Part shown: piece by piece, positions 2,675-11,716 of the stretch | How the letters are laid out: each line of letters begins with the position of its first letter | Position numbering within the stretch: the first letter of the stretch is position 1 | Source of the DNA: Promethearchaeota archaeon | Lineage (GTDB): Archaea; Asgardarchaeota; Lokiarchaeia; Sigyniarchaeales; SOKP01 | DNA: 11,932 nt | NCBI GenBank assembly: GCA_004524535.1 | Contig: SDNY01000108.1 | Coordinates: 1-11,932, forward strand | Direction: 5' to 3' | Notes under the pieces: model-generated | Databases searched by the model: none | The model's input: only the letters and a program-made list of their open reading frames with translations | What the model was told of the DNA's origin: nothing | Position numbers and translations under genes: made by a program

Positions 2675-3220
2675 ATTCCAGAAAATAAGGTAAAAAAATA
2701 CTTCTCTTTAATTGAGTGTTGGGCTTGGTGCGATATTTGTCAGGATATGGTTGCTTTGAGTATTGATAAAAAGGAAATTTATAATGGTCTTGAAATGGGC
2801 ATATATACCAAGGAATATAAACATTCAAATAAATATCCAGATCCAGAAGATCCAGAAGATAATTCTGGAGAAGAGCACAAAATTTACGTTTATATCAATG
2901 ATAAATACGATGTAACAGGTGTTAAAGCTTTTTTTGGAGATTCGCCTAGTATGGAAGAAATGGAAGCAGCAGCAACAACCACAGGAGAAGTTAGAATCCC
3001 TATAGTTGTAAAAGAAATCCCACCAATGAGCGTTCATTTAGGAATGATGACACAAGATGAATTTAAAGTGCTTAAAATATGTGATGGTATGAATACGATC
3101 GAACAGGTGGCAGAAATTGCTGGAAAAACTGTAGATGATATAGAAAAAATGATGGAAAAATTAAAAAAGAAAGGATTAGTTGATATAATAAAAAGGGCAT
3201 CCTCAAAAAAGGGATTTTAG
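2675..3220 (+). CDS. Hypothetical protein with N-terminal CxxC...H...H putative metal site and C-terminal winged helix; probable ATT start at 2675 (first in-frame ATG at 2747)
   Basis: Frame is open from 2672 (TGA at 2669-2671) and reads IPENKVKKYFSLIECWAWCDICQD-MVALS; SD-like AGGTGA at 2662-2667 lies 7 nt before ATT. C-terminus EFKVLKICDGMNTIEQVAEIAG...MEKLKKKGLV has a wHTH pattern. Gene is well supported; the start is inferred. Confidence 0.75.
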   Translation: MPENKVKKYFSLIECWAWCDICQDMVALSIDKKEIYNGLEMGIYTKEYKHSNKYPDPEDPEDNSGEEHKIYVYINDKYDVTGVKAFFGDSPSMEEMEAAATTTGEVRIPIVVKEIPPMSVHLGMMTQDEFKVLKICDGMNTIEQVAEIAGKTVDDIEKMMEKLKKKGLVDIIKRASSKKGF

Positions 3221-3236
3221 ATATAAACAGAAGGGC

Positions 3237-3262
3237 ATGATAAACCTATCATATCTTTTTCT
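3237..3262 (+). terminator. Candidate terminator of the 2675..3220 gene
   Basis: ATGATA-aacc-TATCAT hairpin (3237-3252) followed by a T-rich run. Confidence 0.35.
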
Positions 3263-3330
3263 TAAATCTTAATTTTTAAAGTTCTACTAATTTCCGATAC
3301 TATTTTTTGTATATATTTATTTTTGCATTA

Positions 3331-3364
3331 TAAAAAAGAATTGATTAAGACGAGTGGGTCTTAA
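3331..3364 (-). terminator. Candidate terminator of iorAB
   Basis: TTAAGAC-N6-GTCTTAA inverted repeat (3345-3364) followed on the minus strand by TCAATTCTTTTTT. Confidence 0.4.
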
Positions 3365-3400
3365 GTAAATGCTGCTTAATAATTGAATACTACTCTTTTT

Positions 3401-4082
3401 TTACTTTTTCTTTATAATCTTAACACCTTCTTCTAATCCAATTTGCAACGCCTGAATATTATCATCAGGATCTCTAAGCCATTCCTTTATTACTTCCTCA
3501 TAATGTTCAATCTCAATAAACGGAATTTTTCCTGTAGCAATTGCAAAGCCTAACATGATTATATTAACTTGCTGATTACTGTTAAATTTTTCAAGCGATA
3601 ATTCAGTTGCATTCATAAAAAAGATCTCATCTGAATACCCCTTTAAGATCTCTTTGATTTTCTCCAAGGATGGATATTCTTCCAAATCAGCCGTAATTAA
3701 AATTGGCGGAATTGTGCGCGTGTTAATGACGAATGTCGTTTTATTTGAAGCAAAAATCCCTCGTCTTAACGCTTCTACAGGTTCAAAACATATATATAAA
3801 TCAGCATCACCATAACAGATCAATGGAGATTGAAGATTTTTACGGTCATCTTCAAAAATTTCCTTTTGATATCTACTATGACTTGAAATTGCTCCTTCTC
3901 GCTGAGCGAGCCCATGCATTAAATGTATATGCTTGAGTTAAGCTTTATATTTCACTTCCAAAAGCTCGCTTTATTCCAGCTTTTTGAGCAGCAAATTCTA
4001 TTAATCTTTTCAAGGTAATGACGCCTTGTCCAGCAGTTCCGGCTATAACAATATTTACTATATCTGTTTCCTTAAATTTCAC
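3401..4082 (-). CDS. iorB: Indolepyruvate:ferredoxin oxidoreductase beta subunit, split gene: exon 1 4082..3951 (44 codons), exon 2 3919..3401; 216 aa if spliced
   Basis: GTG at 4082 with SD GGAGGT (4091-4096) 8 nt upstream, overlapping the iorA stop. Exon 1 = MKFKETDIVNIVIAGTAGQGVITLKRLIEFAAQKAGIKRAFGSE (GxxGQG motif). Exon 2 = MHGLAQREGAISSHSR...SPLI..GDAD...EPVEALR...N.IMLG. Joined they give the family motif SE-x-HG-x-AQR. Confidence 0.92.
3920..3950 (-). other. Candidate 31-nt bulge-helix-bulge (BHB) intron in iorB mRNA
   Basis: Sequence AUAUAAAGCUUAACUCAAGCAUAUACAUUUA. Central 4-bp helix AGUG (3956-3953)/CAUU (3925-3922); 3-nt bulges AAA (3952-3950) and UAA (3921-3919); flanking intron and exon helices. 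Cutting after the second nucleotide of each bulge removes exactly 3950..3920 and restores the frame. Confidence 0.85.
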
Positions 4083-6042
4083 GGAATGATACCTCCTTTT
4101 CTAAAGCATTGAAGATGGATTTATGTATCGCGGCATTGGGACATATTTTGAAGCATACGCCACATTTTATGCATCTATCCTCGTCAATTTGCATGGTTTC
4201 TCTTTCGTTGATTACGGTCCGGCGTATTGCCGGGCAACTAAGAATTCTTGCACACTCATAGCACATTTGACAATTATAGATTTGATAGACTTCCTCTTTT
4301 ATTTTTTCTCCTTTCACTTCGAGTTCTTTAACCTGTTTCATACGCCATCGATGAGCTTGAAGAGCACATTCCCTTTTAATGATAATTACTTTTAAGCCTT
4401 TAATTTTTAGACCTTCTTCAATAGTTCGCGTAAGTTTCTTAGGATTATACGAATCCTCGACTCGAAGCCATGGTACACCTATTGCTTTACAAATTGTTTC
4501 TATTGAAAATCCTTTATTAATTAGAAATCTAAGCACGTCGTCTTGATGACCAGTCATCGCTGTCCATGAATTTTCAAAGATAATTAGGAGTACATTTGAA
4601 TTATATCCAACAGCTTCTGCTAACGGTGGCATACCTGTGTGAAAAAATGTGGAATCTCCTATCAATGCTATAATTTGTTGATCAGTTTTAGTGGACATAC
4701 CAATAGCCGCACTTATCCCTCCGGACATGCAAATGATTAAATCACTACATTCTTGAGGTGGGAAAAACGACATAACATAACATCCAATATCTCCACAAAT
4801 TACAGTATTTTCTAAACTATTTGTTGCTTTTAATATAGAGTAGAGTGTAGCTCGTTCAGGACAACCAGCACAAAAAGTAGGAAATCTGCTAGGAACCATC
4901 TCTTTATATGAATTGAAATAATCGATTGCTTTTATCATCTGATCATTTGGTGTTTTATTAAAGATCTTTGCTAAACAAGTGGCAACTAATCCAGTAGAAA
5001 ATTCATTATATTTAGGGAAAAATTTCTCTCCAATTATTTCTACATTAATTCTTTGATTCTGAGCAATTTCAGCAATTTTTATTTCTAAAAAAGGTTCTAA
5101 TTCTTCGATAATAATTACTTTTTCAAGGTTTTGCATGAAATTGGTGATTTCTTTGTAGTTTAGTGGGTAAATCATTCCAAGTTTTAGCACCGGCACATCG
5201 CTTAATCCTAATTGTTCAAGAGCTTCCATTGTATAACCAAAAGGCATACCGCTGGTTATTATTCCTATTTTATTGTCCCCTGAGAAAACTTTATTTAATC
5301 CTAATTCCGGAATAGCTGCCCTTAATTTCTCAATTCGCTCATATAACCTAATATGATTATTTATGGCATGAGGAGGCAATGAATTGAATTTTGGAATATT
5401 TCTGATAAATTCTCCTTTTCCCTTACCCTTTTTTAGTGGTTCTAACTCCACAAATCCTCTAGAATGAGCACTTCTAGTTGACATTCGAAAATCAAAAACC
5501 AAATCGTATTTTTCTGAAAGGTCAAAAGCGATTTTAATCCAATCCTTACACTCTTGAGGAGTATGTGGCTCAATAGTAGGAAGGTGAAGCATCCATGCAT
5601 AAAAACGCTCATTTTGTTCTTGATGAGATCCTAACGATCCTGGATCAGAACCGATCGAGACGACCATTCCTCCGGGATTGGGTCCATTTAACGCAATTAC
5701 ACTTAAAGCATCACTAGCTACATTTAATCCCACATGTTTCATTGGATTTAAAGATCTACATCCAGTCCAAGCAGCTCCTGCACATGCTGAAGTTGCTACT
5801 GCTTCATTTACCGCCCAATGATGGACCAAATATTCTTTAAATTCTGGATTTTCTCTTAAGACTTGATGGAAATACTCTCCTATATCACTGGTGGGTGTAC
5901 CAGGATATTGCGAAACATAGGATACGCCCGCCTCGAGACAACCTCTTACAAGGGCCTCGTTTCCAAGCATTAATACTTTTCCTTGCTCATCGAGAAAGCG
6001 AGTATCTTTTCTTGGCAATTTAATCCTCTTCAATAATTCCAA
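4072..6042 (-). CDS. iorA: Indolepyruvate:ferredoxin oxidoreductase alpha subunit (TPP-binding, C-terminal 2x[4Fe-4S])
   Basis: LGNEALVRG, YPGTPTSDI, NEAVA, MKHVGLNVASD, DPGSLGSHQEQ, FCAGCP, GDIGCY, IGDSTFFHTG...N..TAMTGHQ and two ferredoxin Cys clusters. The true start may be the TTG at 6018 (GAGG at 6025-6028, 6 nt upstream). Confidence 0.95.
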   Translation of the reverse strand: MELLKRIKLPRKDTRFLDEQGKVLMLGNEALVRGCLEAGVSYVSQYPGTPTSDIGEYFHQVLRENPEFKEYLVHHWAVNEAVATSACAGAAWTGCRSLNPMKHVGLNVASDALSVIALNGPNPGGMVVSIGSDPGSLGSHQEQNERFYAWMLHLPTIEPHTPQECKDWIKIAFDLSEKYDLVFDFRMSTRSAHSRGFVELEPLKKGKGKGEFIRNIPKFNSLPPHAINNHIRLYERIEKLRAAIPELGLNKVFSGDNKIGIITSGMPFGYTMEALEQLGLSDVPVLKLGMIYPLNYKEITNFMQNLEKVIIIEELEPFLEIKIAEIAQNQRINVEIIGEKFFPKYNEFSTGLVATCLAKIFNKTPNDQMIKAIDYFNSYKEMVPSRFPTFCAGCPERATLYSILKATNSLENTVICGDIGCYVMSFFPPQECSDLIICMSGGISAAIGMSTKTDQQIIALIGDSTFFHTGMPPLAEAVGYNSNVLLIIFENSWTAMTGHQDDVLRFLINKGFSIETICKAIGVPWLRVEDSYNPKKLTRTIEEGLKIKGLKVIIIKRECALQAHRWRMKQVKELEVKGEKIKEEVYQIYNCQMCYECARILSCPAIRRTVINERETMQIDEDRCIKCGVCFKICPNAAIHKSIFNALEKEVSFREI

Positions 6043-6159: not shown

Positions 6160-7155
6160 AAAATTAAAGAAAAATAAAAAAAACTAAAGAAAGAAAGAAT
6201 AATATTCATTTTATTTAATTTACTTTTAAAATAATTCCTCGCTCTACTATTATGGAAGAGTTAAAATCAAAGGTAAGAAAGAAAGGACTCGATTTAGGGA
6301 TGGATTTAGTTGGGTTTACTGATCTATCTCGTCTTATTAATGCTCCAAAACGATTCCACGCGACGGACTATTTACCAACAGCAAAATCAGTTATCGTTGT
6401 GGGTTGTCACTTTCCCGAAGGAAGCGTGGAAAACTGGGTAAAATCGCCTTCTTCATACCAGTATTATGGATATGCTCTAATAAACAAAGAATTAGGACGT
6501 GCTTGCTTGCATATTTCTAAATTGGTAGAAAAAGAGGGATATAGATGTTTTCCGATAGTTCCAACAGGACACTCAAAAGATTGGGATCATAAAAAGCAAT
6601 TAGGAGAATTTTCCCATAGACATGCTGCTGTTGCCGCAGGTTTAGGTGAATTTGGGTATAATAGACTTGTTATTACACCTCAATTTGGCAATCGGATAAG
6701 ATTTTGTTCTATAATTACCGAGGCACCCTTTGAACCCGATCCTATGTATGATGGACCTGCTTTATGCGACCGATGTAAAAAATGTATACAAGCATGCCCT
6801 GGAAATTGTCTTGATGAAAGTAAGCTTATAGAATGTCAAATCGGTGAAAAAAAGTATGAATATGCCACTCTTTATCATTTTAAATGTTTTTATCACCTCT
6901 TGGGATTAGGACCGAAAACGGGGGCTGGCATTGATATCAAGGGACCTAAGAAAAAAGGAGAACTTTCACAATTTGGATTTTTAAAACGCTATATAAAAGC
7001 TTTTATTCTTCGATTTCAAAAATATCAGTACATTTCCCGCCAACAAAACGCCGTGGATTGGTTCGAATTCTGTGGACGTTGCTTACATGTATGCAATCGA
7101 CCATTAAAATAGCTCAATTTAATAATTAAAGAAAATTAAAGAAAAATAAAAAAAA
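6160..7155. repeat. 24-bp exact A-rich direct repeat flanking the QueG-like gene (6160-6183 and 7132-7155)
   Basis: AAAATTAAAGAAAAATAAAAAAAA at both sites; 6152-6178 also matches 7114-7140 at 25 of 27 positions. Low complexity. Confidence 0.45.
6252..7112 (+). CDS. Epoxyqueuosine reductase (QueG)/reductive dehalogenase-like iron-sulfur protein, probably cobamide-binding
   Basis: GMDLVGF, LPTAKSVIV, SHRHAAVAAGLGEFGYNRLVITPQFGNRIRFCSIIT, CDRCKKCIQACP and C...CGRCLHVC. No TAT signal seen. TTTTAAAA at 6224-6231, about 25 nt before the ATG, and no SD suggest a leaderless transcript. Confidence 0.85.
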   Translation: MEELKSKVRKKGLDLGMDLVGFTDLSRLINAPKRFHATDYLPTAKSVIVVGCHFPEGSVENWVKSPSSYQYYGYALINKELGRACLHISKLVEKEGYRCFPIVPTGHSKDWDHKKQLGEFSHRHAAVAAGLGEFGYNRLVITPQFGNRIRFCSIITEAPFEPDPMYDGPALCDRCKKCIQACPGNCLDESKLIECQIGEKKYEYATLYHFKCFYHLLGLGPKTGAGIDIKGPKKKGELSQFGFLKRYIKAFILRFQKYQYISRQQNAVDWFEFCGRCLHVCNRPLK

Positions 7156-7192: not shown

Positions 7193-8338
7193 TTAAAAGC
7201 ATCTGTGAATAACCTGTGGTCCCATCTCTTTATACTCTCTCCTTGTAACCCACATACGGTGGAAGGTTTTCAAGGAACTTAGAATTGAGCCACCAATCCA
7301 TACAGAATACATACGTTCTGGTGGTGCAATAATCTTTACATCTACAGACTCAGGGATTTGTTCCTTAATTTCCTTGGTCAATCTTTCTTTAATACCTGGA
7401 AACATAGTAGAACCTCCAGAGAGCACAATATTGCTGTAAAGGTCTCTTCTTAAGTCGACATCACATTCAGAGATAGCTCCTACAATCACATCATCTAAAG
7501 GCTCTAATTCTTTCCCTATTACTGATGGATTAAATAAGCATTCAGGACCTAGAAATCTTTCTACACCTACGTTAATTGTTTCACCGTCAGGAAGCATGTA
7601 GCTCTTTTCCATTCCAGCTACTTTCTTGCTAAGCATCATCTCCTTTTCGGGATCGATTGCTACATAGCAGAGCTTTTCTTTTATATCTCTTACAATTTCT
7701 TTCTCTGCCGAAGTAGTAAATGAATAGCCTTTTTGCCTGAGTAATCTTTGTAAATATGTCGTTATATCTCTACCTGCGAGGTCTATCCTTTGGATGGCGT
7801 GACTTAAGGCGAAACCCTCGAAGATTGGTACAACGTGGGATACACCATCACCAATATCAATAACGCATCCAGTAGTACGACCAGACGCATATAAAGACAA
7901 TACTGCTTGCATAGCTACGTATAATGCTGGAGTATTAAACGTTTCAAACATTATTTCAGCCATTTTTTCTCTATTTGGCCTTGGATTTAATGGAGCTTCA
8001 GTTAGCAGTACAGGATGTTCGCTAGGATCGATTCTTAAATCAGTATAGAAGGTATAATGCCAGATCTTTTCCATTGCTGTCCAATCTTCAATGATACCGT
8101 GCTCTACAGGGAACATTAACTTTAAAACACCCTTGAGTTGCATTGCTTCTTCTCCAATGTAATACTCACGGGTATAATGTTCGACATCAGTCATTATGCT
8201 CTCATATTTAGGATAACCAATTAGCGTTGGAAATACAGATCGGGGCTGATCTTCACCAGCAAATCCATTTTTTGAAATACCTGTACCATTATCAACCACT
8301 AAGGCCTTAGCATTTAAAAAGCTTTCGTCTTCTGCCAT
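7193..8338 (-). CDS. Actin (Lokiactin-type Asgard actin), 381 aa
   Basis: [126 protein letters not shown] and C-terminal HRCF; colinear with eukaryotic actin. Confidence 0.98.
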
Positions 8339-9350: not shown

Positions 9351-10796
9351 ATGAAAATAACTCCGAATTATATTGGAAATAATTTAGATAAATTAGGGAT
9401 AAAGGAGGCATGCTCACTTTTAAAAGAGCTAATTACTAGTTCAAACGATTTAAATTTAAGATTAGAGGCATTAGAATTTTTTGGAACAATCGAAGATGGC
9501 AAACATTTTAAATTTTTTGAACAACTTTTTCTTTCTGACGAAAATATTGATATTAGGATTAGATGTGGCAATATTTTAAAGGATAAATATTTAAAAGATA
9601 AGAGAATTATTCCGCTTTTAGAATTCACTCTTTTTAATGTGAATAATTTTGAACAAAAATTTCTTGCTGTAGAGATATTAAATATAATAAATACTACAAA
9701 AACAAGAAAGATTATTAAAAATTTTATAAAGACCTATATTAAAATAAAATTAAGGGACAAAAAAGAAGAATTTCCAAAAGAAATCTTTATTCATGATTAC
9801 GATATTCCTATATCTCATACAATATTAGAGATTTGCTTTAATTTAATTCTTTATGAATATTACATAAATGAATTTGGATATAATGTTACTTTACGGAATG
9901 GTCTTATTATTTTATTAAATTGCGAAGGTTCCAATTTAAAGAGTATTAAAAATATAGACGCTATAAATAAACTTACGCATTTAAAACACTTATATGTTCA
10001 ACGGAATAACATAATAAAAATAGAAGGTCTTGAAAGTCTACAAAACTTAAAAACCTTAGATTTATCGAAAAATAATATTAAAAAGATTGAAAATCTGCAG
10101 GAATTAAATAATTTAGAAGAATTAGATTTATCCTACAATTTGATAAAAAATATGGCAAATCTTGATTCTTTAGTAAATTTGAGTAAATTAAATTTAGAAT
10201 TTAATTCAATAACAGCTATTAGTGGATTAAGGAATTTACACAATTTGGAAGAGTTAAACTTAGGTCATAATAGAATTTCAGAAATTAAAAATTTAGAATT
10301 CTTAGGAAAATTAAAGAAATTAAATCTTTCATATAACCAAATTGAAACAATAAAAGGATTAGAAAAATTGGAAATTATAAAATGGCTATATCTCAATTAT
10401 AATAAAATCTCTCGGATTGAAGGTTTAGGTGCTTTAAATATTATTAAAGGACTCTATCTTTCAAATAACATAATAACTCGAATTGAAAATTTAGATAATT
10501 TAATTAATTTAACACAATTAGTGTTATCTTATAATAAAATTCAAAAAATTGAAGGATTGGGGAATCTATTAAAACTTAATACTTTATATCTTGATAATAA
10601 CAGTATAAAAAAATTGGAAGGTATTAATAATTTAAAAAATTTAAATCAACTTTATCTCGTGAATAATCAAATCTCTGTATATAATAATAGAAGTATCGAG
10701 AAATTAGAAAAACTATATTATTTGTTTTTAAACGGCAATCCCCTCACGCCTGAGAGCTGGATTTCTTATAAAAAAAAAATGACTAAATATCCATAA
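9351..10796 (+). CDS. Leucine-rich repeat protein (SDS22-like) with N-terminal HEAT-like helical region
   Basis: About 12-13 repeats, mostly 22 aa, of LxxLxLxxNxIxxIxxLxxL ending in LFLNGNPL. N-terminus has D.NLRLEALEFFG and DENIDIRIRCGNIL. Starts 1 nt after the wHTH stop, suggesting an operon. Confidence 0.92.
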   Translation: MKITPNYIGNNLDKLGIKEACSLLKELITSSNDLNLRLEALEFFGTIEDGKHFKFFEQLFLSDENIDIRIRCGNILKDKYLKDKRIIPLLEFTLFNVNNFEQKFLAVEILNIINTTKTRKIIKNFIKTYIKIKLRDKKEEFPKEIFIHDYDIPISHTILEICFNLILYEYYINEFGYNVTLRNGLIILLNCEGSNLKSIKNIDAINKLTHLKHLYVQRNNIIKIEGLESLQNLKTLDLSKNNIKKIENLQELNNLEELDLSYNLIKNMANLDSLVNLSKLNLEFNSITAISGLRNLHNLEELNLGHNRISEIKNLEFLGKLKKLNLSYNQIETIKGLEKLEIIKWLYLNYNKISRIEGLGALNIIKGLYLSNNIITRIENLDNLINLTQLVLSYNKIQKIEGLGNLLKLNTLYLDNNSIKKLEGINNLKNLNQLYLVNNQISVYNNRSIEKLEKLYYLFLNGNPLTPESWISYKKKMTKYP

Positions 10797-10885: not shown

Positions 10886-11716
10886 ATGACACAACCAAAC
10901 AATATACCCTCGTTTAAACCCCGTTTAATTAAAAAAGACGATTTATACGGGGATAGTGGTTACACACTGAAATTAATTAAGCCAAATATATATCAGTTTC
11001 AATCTATAGGTGCTGGTTGTCATGTTTATCTCGTGATCGGTGAAAATTTAAATGTATTAATAGATACTGGGATTATCTCAAAATTTAATAGTTTTAATTA
11101 TTTACTTACAACAGAAATCGGGCTTAAAGTGGAGGATATTGATCTAGTAATTAACACGCACGAACACTTCGACCACATAAGCTCGAACGCCTATTTTCAT
11201 TGTCTTGTTGCTGCTGGTTACTGGAGTGCTATAAAAATCCAACACACAGATGAGTTAATAACAAAAGGAAAAAAATGGGATGTAGACTTATCAGACCTGA
11301 AAGTGAACATATGGCTTGAAGATCGAAATATAATTGATTTAGGAAATGTATTCTTTAAAATAATAGAAACCCCCGGTCACACTTCAGGTTGTATTTGTAT
11401 TTACGAACCCTATGAACATTATATTTTTACTGGAGACACGTTATTTCAAGGGGCAACTACAAATATTTATGAATCCGGTTCAATTTCAGAATACATAAAC
11501 TCTCTAGAAATACTTAACACTCTAAAGATTAGCAGTTTTTATCCGGGTCATGGAAAATATGTGATAGGCGAGGAAAAAATAAAAGAGGAAATCGCATCCT
11601 CAATTGAAAATGCTACAATGGAACTTCAAACTTTTATTTATCGAATAAAGAGCAAACCTTTAAAAGAAAGTAGACCGCCCCCATCTCTATACGACAGAGA
11701 GGAAGAGGATTTATAA
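10886..11716 (+). CDS. Metallo-beta-lactamase-fold hydrolase (glyoxalase II-like)
   Basis: LIDTG, THEHFDH (HxHxDH), TPGHTSG, FTGDTLF and YPGHG: a complete metal-ligand set. Substrate cannot be inferred. Confidence 0.92.
   Translation: MTQPNNIPSFKPRLIKKDDLYGDSGYTLKLIKPNIYQFQSIGAGCHVYLVIGENLNVLIDTGIISKFNSFNYLLTTEIGLKVEDIDLVINTHEHFDHISSNAYFHCLVAAGYWSAIKIQHTDELITKGKKWDVDLSDLKVNIWLEDRNIIDLGNVFFKIIETPGHTSGCICIYEPYEHYIFTGDTLFQGATTNIYESGSISEYINSLEILNTLKISSFYPGHGKYVIGEEKIKEEIASSIENATMELQTFIYRIKSKPLKESRPPPSLYDREEEDL

Follow-up and report, generated by a model that had tools for sequence, protein, structure and literature searches.

Whether a short, stop-bearing insert in a metabolic gene of an Asgard archaeon disables that gene or is removed from its messenger RNA is the question raised by iorB in the window studied here, i.e. 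the whole stretch of 11,932 nt that was analysed. A preliminary description, made from the letters of the DNA, had proposed a candidate intron of the bulge-helix-bulge (BHB) type, the motif cut by the archaeal splicing endonuclease EndA before ligation of the exons by RtcB. Based on the fold of the insert, comparisons to orthologs and a scan of the remaining genome, we propose that the insert is very probably a tRNA-type mRNA intron, with cleavage and ligation predicted from sequence. In the following, G000 denotes the genome under study and C numbers its contigs, while the other G numbers refer to genomes of relatives and L numbers to loci of relatives and metagenomes.

The iorB insert and its fold

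Position, letters and reading frame of the 31-nt insert (3950..3920, minus strand) agree exactly with the preliminary description (Table 1). With its in-frame UAA and frame shift, the insert leaves 45 aa encoded by the unspliced message versus 216 aa by the spliced one. Application of the EndA rule removes exactly 31 nt and brings back the conserved frame, and the residues at the junction are those of the intron-less orthologs. All four pairs of the central helix can form between two opposed 3-nt bulges, and the intron stem, UAUA/UAUA followed by GCUU/AAGC, closes the loop AACUC. Four cut registers restore the same peptide, of which only that given by the BHB rule combines the full helix with a stable inner stem. 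When the insert was shuffled, 10 of 20000 versions had both a complete central helix and a complete (4/4) first intron stem, and none of the 20000 also reached the stem energy. The free minimum of the iorB RNA, at -18.7 kcal/mol, has the central-helix register shifted and the BHB conformer, at -18.4 kcal/mol, is 0.3 kcal/mol less stable; the folding z-score of the whole fragment is a modest -2.05.

Several other identities of the insert were considered. A self-splicing group I or group II intron was rejected, as the ribozyme core comprises hundreds of bases compared to 31 nt here and Rfam yielded no match in the window at E values up to 1. The AAT repeat at its ends, which could be read as a target-site duplication, is not conserved, and 5 of the 20 inserts compared below lack any terminal repeat. 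A second copy of the intron was not found in the genome within 7 mismatches; the other introns of the genome score at most 17/31 against it, and hence recent intragenomic copying is not indicated. Scanning for sigma-70-type promoters and terminators gave chance-level results with a model that is ill-suited to archaea.

The name iorB stands as the best NCBIfam match, but at a score below the curated cut-off: against 205.8 for TIGR03334, exon 2 reaches 85 and the intact G005 ortholog 111, for which this is still the best family. Because the upstream alpha subunit likewise scores below its cut-off, the two genes are designated IorA-like and IorB-like only, with a putative substrate. The genome, which is 99% complete, holds a single iorB match, and the actin gene of the window is in keeping with an Asgard host. 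No break was noticed in the window's genes for actin, the leucine-rich-repeat protein, EF-1 beta, the winged-helix protein, MutL, the Fe-S protein and the metallo-beta-lactamase-fold protein. About 150-175 extra AT-rich bases follow iorB (window 3200-3390) and are absent in G008 and L205; they have weak matches of 73-84% on C16, C20 and C39 and no nuclease similarity.

Table 1. Features of the window (plain positions) and of other contigs of the same genome (C numbers); introns, pairings and cuts are predicted.
Feature	Location	Strand	Remarks
Shine-Dalgarno-like GGAGG	4092..4096	-	precedes exon-1 GTG; read from sequence
iorB exon 1	3951..4082	-	44 codons; start GTG at 4082 overlapping iorA stop; GxxGQG motif; TIGR03334 profile positions 1-30
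31-nt BHB intron	3920..3950	-	in-frame UAA, shifts frame; hairpin, pentaloop 3939-3935
iorB exon 2	3401..3919	-	172 codons plus stop (TAA at 3401); first codon ATG at 3919; TIGR03334 positions 36-184; PF01558 from profile position 29
Exon-exon stem, 5' arm	3957..3970	-	pairs with 3905..3918
Central helix, 5' strand (exon 1, AGUG)	3953..3956	-	4 bp with 3922..3925, one G-U
Bulge 1	3950..3952	-	predicted cut between 3951 and 3950 (BHB rule as in available parts of PMC2738675)
Central helix, 3' strand (intron, CAUU)	3922..3925	-	pairs with 3953..3956
Bulge 2	3919..3921	-	predicted cut between 3920 and 3919 (same rule)
Exon-exon stem, 3' arm	3905..3918	-	12-bp interrupted stem with 3957..3970
Co-conversion tract (predicted)	3802..3976	-	about 26 nt upstream and 117 nt downstream of intron (-26 to +117); about 145 nt; foreign versus nearest intron-less allele L205
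iorA-like alpha subunit	4072..6042	-	intact, upstream, same operon; TIGR03336 542.9 bits, cut-off 650.9
MutL C-terminal part	2-808	+
EF-1 beta	1978-2247	-
Winged-helix protein	2747-3220	+	conserved downstream of iorB
Fe-S protein	6252-7112	+
Actin	7193-8338	-
Leucine-rich-repeat protein	9351-10796	+
Metallo-beta-lactamase-fold protein	10886-11716	+
rpoA1 BHB intron	C17:309-338	-	introns in G000 set 26-32 nt
gyrB BHB intron	C104:12274-12303	-
uL11 BHB intron	C188:175-204	+
RNase HII BHB intron	C98:21969-21998	-
cdhA BHB intron	C100:12004-12033	-
cdhD BHB intron	C8:3057-3086	-
argG BHB intron	C8:15418-15447	-
AOR BHB intron	C144:21930-21959	+
BcrAD-type ATPase BHB intron	C65:33272-33300	+
YchF-related GTPase BHB intron	C174:1980-2010	-
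korC BHB introns (two)	C189:15035-15064 and 15159-15188	-
B12-binding protein BHB intron	C113:6524-6555	-
NifU BHB intron	C113:12409-12437	-
hdrB BHB intron	C162:9354-9382	+
SCP2 BHB intron	C86:9543-9568	+
Ubiquitin-conjugating E2 BHB intron	C123:17016-17044	-
Small GTPase, candidate	C104:6346-6375	+	this and the next seven rows: good fold, profile support absent or unclear
Zinc-ribbon-like protein, candidate	C126:17255-17285	-
Membrane protein, candidate	C100:23206-23235	+
Metallo-hydrolase, candidate	C180:253-282	-
Cys-motif protein, candidate	C55:4955-4985	+
Uncharacterized gene, candidate	C54:16196-16227	-
Uncharacterized gene, candidate	C26:5413-5443	-
CTP synthase, candidate	C47:2051-2076	-	broken, ambiguous register

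Distribution, covariation and selection among iorB orthologs

Within the family, iorB was found in 60 of 134 genomes, one of which is cut off upstream, leaving 59 to be scored. In 20 of these, spanning 9 genus codes, the identical base is occupied by an insert of 30-31 nt, every one containing an in-frame stop; the other 39 lack it. None of five orthologs from other families carries the insert, and a search across the class gave matches in 13 genomes outside the family, all of them covering the site and free of stops. Metagenome contigs hold inserts of 30-32 nt in 24 of the 70 loci that cover the junction, a further 10 of the 80 loci not covering it. A spliced copy was not found among the assemblies, where the closest pair of an intron-less and an intron-bearing gene is 91.8% identical.

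Occurrence in only 60 of 134 genomes marks iorB as dispensable, in agreement with a disabling insertion that created a pseudogene. Such an insertion and an assembly artefact had both been named in the preliminary description as outcomes that would speak against an intron. Either is exceedingly improbable and at odds with the comparison of orthologs. Far from being confined to one strain, the insert is identical in G008, is present in diverged form at the same base in 18 more genomes and recurs in independent assemblies, and the exon 2 frame is full length in all 20 intron-bearing genes. Moreover, the dN/dS of exon 2 is about 0.13 (medians of 0.128 with and 0.138 without the intron) at a median dS of 1.7.

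In phage T4 gene 60, ribosomes bypass a stretch of message in a programmed manner, using matching take-off and landing codons. A comparable bypass or frameshift over the iorB hairpin, with the RNA remaining uncut, would account for the early stop in the insert, the hairpin itself and the 3-nt repeat at the ends in this genome. However, matching take-off and landing codons are not conserved, 5 of the 20 inserts cannot slide at all, and the insert at this one site varies in length between 30, 31 and 32 nt, which would require three different frame jumps. As the genome-wide signal described below is in addition specific to bulges of 3 nt, we assign bypass only a very slight probability, albeit above that of a pseudogene.

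Removal of the insert as a BHB intron, in turn, is in agreement with its covariation, for which compensatory changes had been suggested as a check. Of the 20 orthologs, 14 have U-A and 6 have C-G as the third pair of the central helix, a silent change in a serine codon being matched in the intron, and this pair has changed three times on the tree. Over 18 distinct rows, 92.1% of the alignment cells are paired and 11 of 26 pairs have changed on both sides, for a scored structure that was drawn from the same sequences and is thereby favoured; 0 of 500 shuffles reached this level of pairing, and slid controls gave 20-46%. The individual helices of the fold are 90.7-93.2% paired in these rows, whereas the central helix is left out of RNAalifold's own consensus. 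Across 36 distinct junctions, the central helix has four pairs in only 24, three in 7 and two in 5, the alleles of G073 and G081 being among those with two pairs; the third pair is mismatched in 3 of the 36. Junctions with an imperfect central helix either need an EndA of relaxed specificity or are decaying.

The flanking exons also differ between the two classes of gene. The exon-exon duplex has a mean of -17.4 kcal/mol in genes with the intron compared to -6.4 kcal/mol in those without, and -12 kcal/mol or lower is reached by 20 of 20 and 5 of 39, respectively. At four-fold sites, intron-bearing genes are more alike, mainly from -24 to +21. In a kinship-aware test restricted to well-supported branches, only four independent pairs bear on the exon-stem link (p 0.125) and only one on the helix covariation.

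The five intron-less genes with a strong exon stem (-12.0 to -16.3 kcal/mol) are those of G045, G140, G120, G117 and G079, four of which have a non-overlapping start, as do several intron-bearing alleles. The intron-bearing L271 is 92% identical to the intron-less G117. These five genes possibly represent precise intron loss.

Further interrupted genes and the splicing enzymes of the host

Both strands of the genome were scanned for BHB motifs whose excision would bring two coding-like frames together. With four central-helix pairs and 3-nt bulges, 17 loci were obtained, 15 of them at 29-32 nt, while six wrong bulge sizes returned 7, 5, 1, 4, 1 and 5 loci, with 2, 3, 0, 1, 0 and 1 in this length range, with some genuine loci reappearing among them in a different register. 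From 125 ranked candidates other than iorB, the top 40 were taken and their exons scanned separately against profiles. Support at the junction was obtained for 16; 15 are intact genes joined to a random upstream frame, four look false (C19, C76, C152 and C123:79444), and five have the structure with profile support absent or unclear. The suspicion voiced in the preliminary description, that interrupted genes of such genomes hide a wider splicing system, thus gains 16 genes besides iorB. As the scan missed an intron in an lsrF-like gene, it is not exhaustive and its count is a lower bound. On this sequence evidence, at least 17 predicted BHB introns of the same type, iorB included, are present in protein genes of this genome.

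In six genes, both exons match one family at adjoining positions, namely CdhD, AFOR_N (31|33), Rpb1_1 (73|74), NifU (16|17), SCP2 and CdhA (61|63), and the exons of the E2 enzyme match one family with an offset of 6 residues. In nine others (RNase HII, uL11, the BcrAD-type ATPase, the B12-binding domain, the YchF-related GTPase, HdrB, KorC, ArgG and GyrB), the match starts in the interior of the profile and with the first or second residue of exon 2. A tblastn search for a second copy found none for CdhD, CdhA, RNase HII, uL11, the GTPase, RpoA1, KorC, ArgG, GyrB or NifU. In relatives, the rpoA1 intron is present in 3 of 30 loci and the gyrB intron, of 30, 31 or 53 nt, in 6 of 26 scored (4 unplaced). 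Of the uL11 genes, 28 could be scored (2 others were unplaced); 14 of these are interrupted, four of them twice, and the four sites used lie within a span of 24 codons.

The 53-nt gyrB introns (L176, L185, L188 and L196) are at the same site as the 30-nt one and share a GC-rich sub-hairpin near the 3' end. In the two-intron uL11 genes L145, L152, L163 and L172 (G005, G112, G116 and G084), the middle exons measure 33, 50, 29 and 21 nt. Most introns among the iorB inserts and the G000 set have a common build of 1 + ~9 bp + 5-nt loop + ~9 bp + 6 nt, in which the fourth loop position is often U; U34, U39 and A42 are invariant in alignment columns 34-42 of the 20 iorB inserts. This shared build may serve the splicing enzymes as a determinant of size or loop.

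The interrupted genes bear on a split-gene arrangement, in which re-initiation at the exon-2 ATG would yield a 172-aa protein, made separately from the 45-aa stub and assembling with it, and the hairpin would be a translational coupling element. ATG is the first codon of exon 2 in all 20 intron-bearing GTDB genes versus 22 of 39 intron-less ones, which would permit re-initiation, and both pieces are under purifying selection. No Shine-Dalgarno-like site can be read ahead of this ATG, however, and L269 has an isoleucine at that position. A methionine does not follow the majority of the other BHB breaks in the genome, and many of the breaks fall inside a codon of a conserved motif; the fixed 3-nt bulges and the covariation between exon and intron would be left unexplained as well. 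Separate synthesis of two pieces is therefore very unlikely, if marginally less so than bypass. A conserved peptide tail translated from the unspliced message was not seen either, the tails comprising 0-7 varied residues in the 20 GTDB cases.

The strongest argument for removal of the inserts comes from essential single-copy genes, since stop-bearing inserts in these cannot all represent pseudogenes. The same genes bear on whether EndA would cut the motif and leave the halves mostly unjoined, i.e. an off-switch or decay signal yielding little full-length IorB. The imperfect central helix in 12 of 36 junctions is compatible with this proposal, as is the negative regulatory role suggested for the cbf5 intron in the accessible text of PMC2738675. 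Yet the same motif interrupts single-copy rpoA1, gyrB and uL11, the products of which must be made whole, and exon 2 of iorB is as conserved as in intron-less genes. Cutting without joining is thus about as improbable as separate synthesis; regulation through splicing efficiency, on top of splicing itself, is possible. As at least 16 other genes, some of them essential, carry similar inserts, many mRNAs of this microbe are very probably spliced.

The genes for the enzymes named in the preliminary description, endA and rtcB, were both located, with two EndA paralogs (alpha on C100, beta on C84) and one RtcB (C101) and no stops inside the matches. The best alignment of the EndA alpha subunit is to the Aeropyrum pernix catalytic subunit 3p1z_B, including the region of the specificity loop and the tyrosine, histidine and lysine positions. 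In the available parts of PMC5829648, Asgard EndA is of a two-subunit, loop-bearing (L1 loop) type, and only types of this kind are described as removing relaxed introns. A partial search, in which 10 of 18 T-loop windows gave a tRNA, placed five tRNA introns in this genome, four of which are 29-33 nt with the same hairpin build. ARAGORN found only 12 tRNA genes in the 99% complete genome, which suggests many tRNAs with multiple introns.

We propose that splicing of iorB would operate as follows. The iorAB transcript would fold into the exon stem, a bulge, the 4-bp helix, a second bulge and the intron hairpin, and the two-subunit EndA of the host would cut after the second base of each bulge (Table 1). 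RtcB would then join the exons into the message for a 216-aa IorB-like subunit, any unspliced message yielding the 45-aa stub.

Arrival of the intron and relation to known systems

On the exon-2 tree the intron is scattered, with 12 changes, at least 4 of which are forced by supported branches. Compared to the metagenome allele L205, the nearest without the intron, the genome under study is 93-96% identical outside a tract around the site and 75% inside, in a comparison that relies on this one close allele. In numbers, 39 differences fall in 158 nt around the site, compared to 61 in the 1078 nt beyond it; because the limits of the tract were set with the data in view, the corresponding Fisher p (2e-12) overstates the contrast. 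Inside the tract, the eight alleles nearest to this genome are all intron-bearing, and the two nearest to L205 are intron-less. The intron is identical at 29 of 31 positions to that of L261, the distal exon 2 of which is only 60-80% identical. Among GTDB alleles alone, donor tracing met saturated synonymous sites and gave no donor. From these sequence patterns, we interpret the tract as a co-conversion tract around the insertion site. It is likely that the intron was gained in this lineage rather than lost, by gene conversion from a distant intron-bearing allele as we propose, loss by conversion in L205 being the less likely alternative. In L257, L258 and L260, a replacement scar is seen, in which the old intron-less exon 1 ends about 9 nt before the site; behind it come a new ribosome site and then an entire gene with the intron.

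Such conversion would most likely have been driven by a free-standing LAGLIDADG nuclease able to cut iorB at the intron-less site. In G061, a 490-aa LAGLIDADG gene (L334:1477-2946, minus strand; PF14528, 30.6 bits, cut-off 22.5) is convergent with the intron-bearing iorB, and relatives or remnants lie beside iorB in G048, G012, L229, L230 and the intron-less G079. Per genome, a nuclease gene or remnant adjoins iorB in only 3 of 20 intron-bearing cases, and in 1 of 39 intron-less cases as well, and none was found beside iorB in the present window. PHROGs did not recognise the nuclease fragments, nor did Pfam an 81-aa remnant. Three relatives of the iorB-linked LAGLIDADG protein are encoded elsewhere in this genome, and at C16:2850-4945 the lsrF-like gene, with a 32-nt predicted BHB intron at 3517-3548, is directly followed by a LAGLIDADG relative. 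We lean towards nuclease-driven homing on this basis. The pattern fits collaborative or trans homing by a putative nuclease, by analogy to phage group I introns.

Non-spliceosomal mRNA splicing has a eukaryotic counterpart in HAC1/XBP1, where Ire1 cuts one mRNA at stem-loops under stress and a tRNA ligase joins the ends. A protein endonuclease and a tRNA ligase are common to both systems, whereas HAC1/XBP1 has no BHB and Ire1 is the cutter. Closer to the present case, the available text of PMC2738675 describes cbf5 introns of 16-44 nt, gives no other confirmed cases and mentions further predictions still lacking confirmation, among them inserts of 12 bp in an archaeal virus. As far as this text reaches, the iorB insert resembles the cbf5 pre-mRNA intron of Desulfurococcales and Sulfolobales in being a short coding-region BHB intron, with a cut (here predicted) between the second and third bulge bases by a hetero-oligomeric EndA, and in its patchiness, which in cbf5 arose through loss. 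Assignment to this class is supported at the sequence level by the central helix, the frame-restoring cut, the covarying flanking helices and the genes for EndA and RtcB. However, cbf5 represents one gene and one site with demonstrated splicing, whereas here, in an Asgard family, splicing is predicted for at least 17 genes of one genome, with some genes carrying two introns and with signs of lateral spread. What is new relative to the cbf5 class is hence the scale, essential genes included, and the homing signature.

The accessible part of PMC7714728 reports a BHB intron in the 5'UTR of Haloferax volcanii HVO_1309 and names cbf5 as the only other mRNA example. EndA acts on mRNA there as is predicted here, but the Haloferax intron is untranslated, leaves the frame unbroken and is served by a different EndA type. 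Archaeal tRNA introns share motif and enzyme with the iorB intron, and repeated gains, the placed tRNA introns of this genome being of similar length. As far as its available text goes, a 2026 Asgard preprint (10.64898/2026.10.13.758758) treats tRNA introns only, with 0 occurrences of 'mRNA', regards the arrival route as the central open problem and found no general route, whereas the iorB alleles display a predicted conversion tract and, in some relatives, a neighbouring putative nuclease gene. In the parts of PMC2988022 at hand, nuclease-less phage introns home collaboratively, in trans, by means of free-standing endonucleases. An ORF-less intron and predicted co-conversion of flanking exons are similar here, as may be the free-standing nuclease gene seen nearby in some relatives; the phage introns, however, belong to self-splicing group I and come with GIY-YIG or HNH nucleases, whereas the present elements, on an archaeal chromosome, are a mini-intron predicted to depend on EndA and a gene for a putative LAGLIDADG nuclease. 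A literature search, with subscription journals mostly outside its scope, found no paper on BHB introns in Asgard mRNAs, and no Asgard mRNA intron appears in the available parts of PMC11291895, PMC5829648, PMC12397907, PMC12918454 and PMC12558985. In the prior literature thus found, and as far as its text was available, archaeal mRNA splicing by EndA comprises one coding-region case (cbf5) and one in a 5'UTR.

In conclusion, we consider it fairly likely that this Promethearchaeia family splices mRNAs genome-wide via the tRNA machinery, with tens of BHB introns of about 30 nt, some two per gene, micro-exons of 21-50 nt and essential genes among the carriers (RNA polymerase, gyrase, uL11, RNase HII and CODH/ACS), and with spread between genera by homing with free-standing LAGLIDADG nucleases. 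Given at least 17 coding-region introns, including those of single-copy essential genes, the organism would rely widely on EndA and RtcB to express its genes. N-termini and catalytic motifs would then be overlooked in gene calls and in metabolic and phylogenomic inferences for these genomes. For the arrival of BHB introns, a testable route is suggested by the iorB alleles. If true, these findings would reveal, in close relatives of eukaryotes, an intron-rich prokaryotic gene architecture that has so far passed for truncated or 'frameshifted' genes, and, with introns that are not spliceosomal and for which no ancestry is claimed, they would bear on RNA processing near the origin of eukaryotes.
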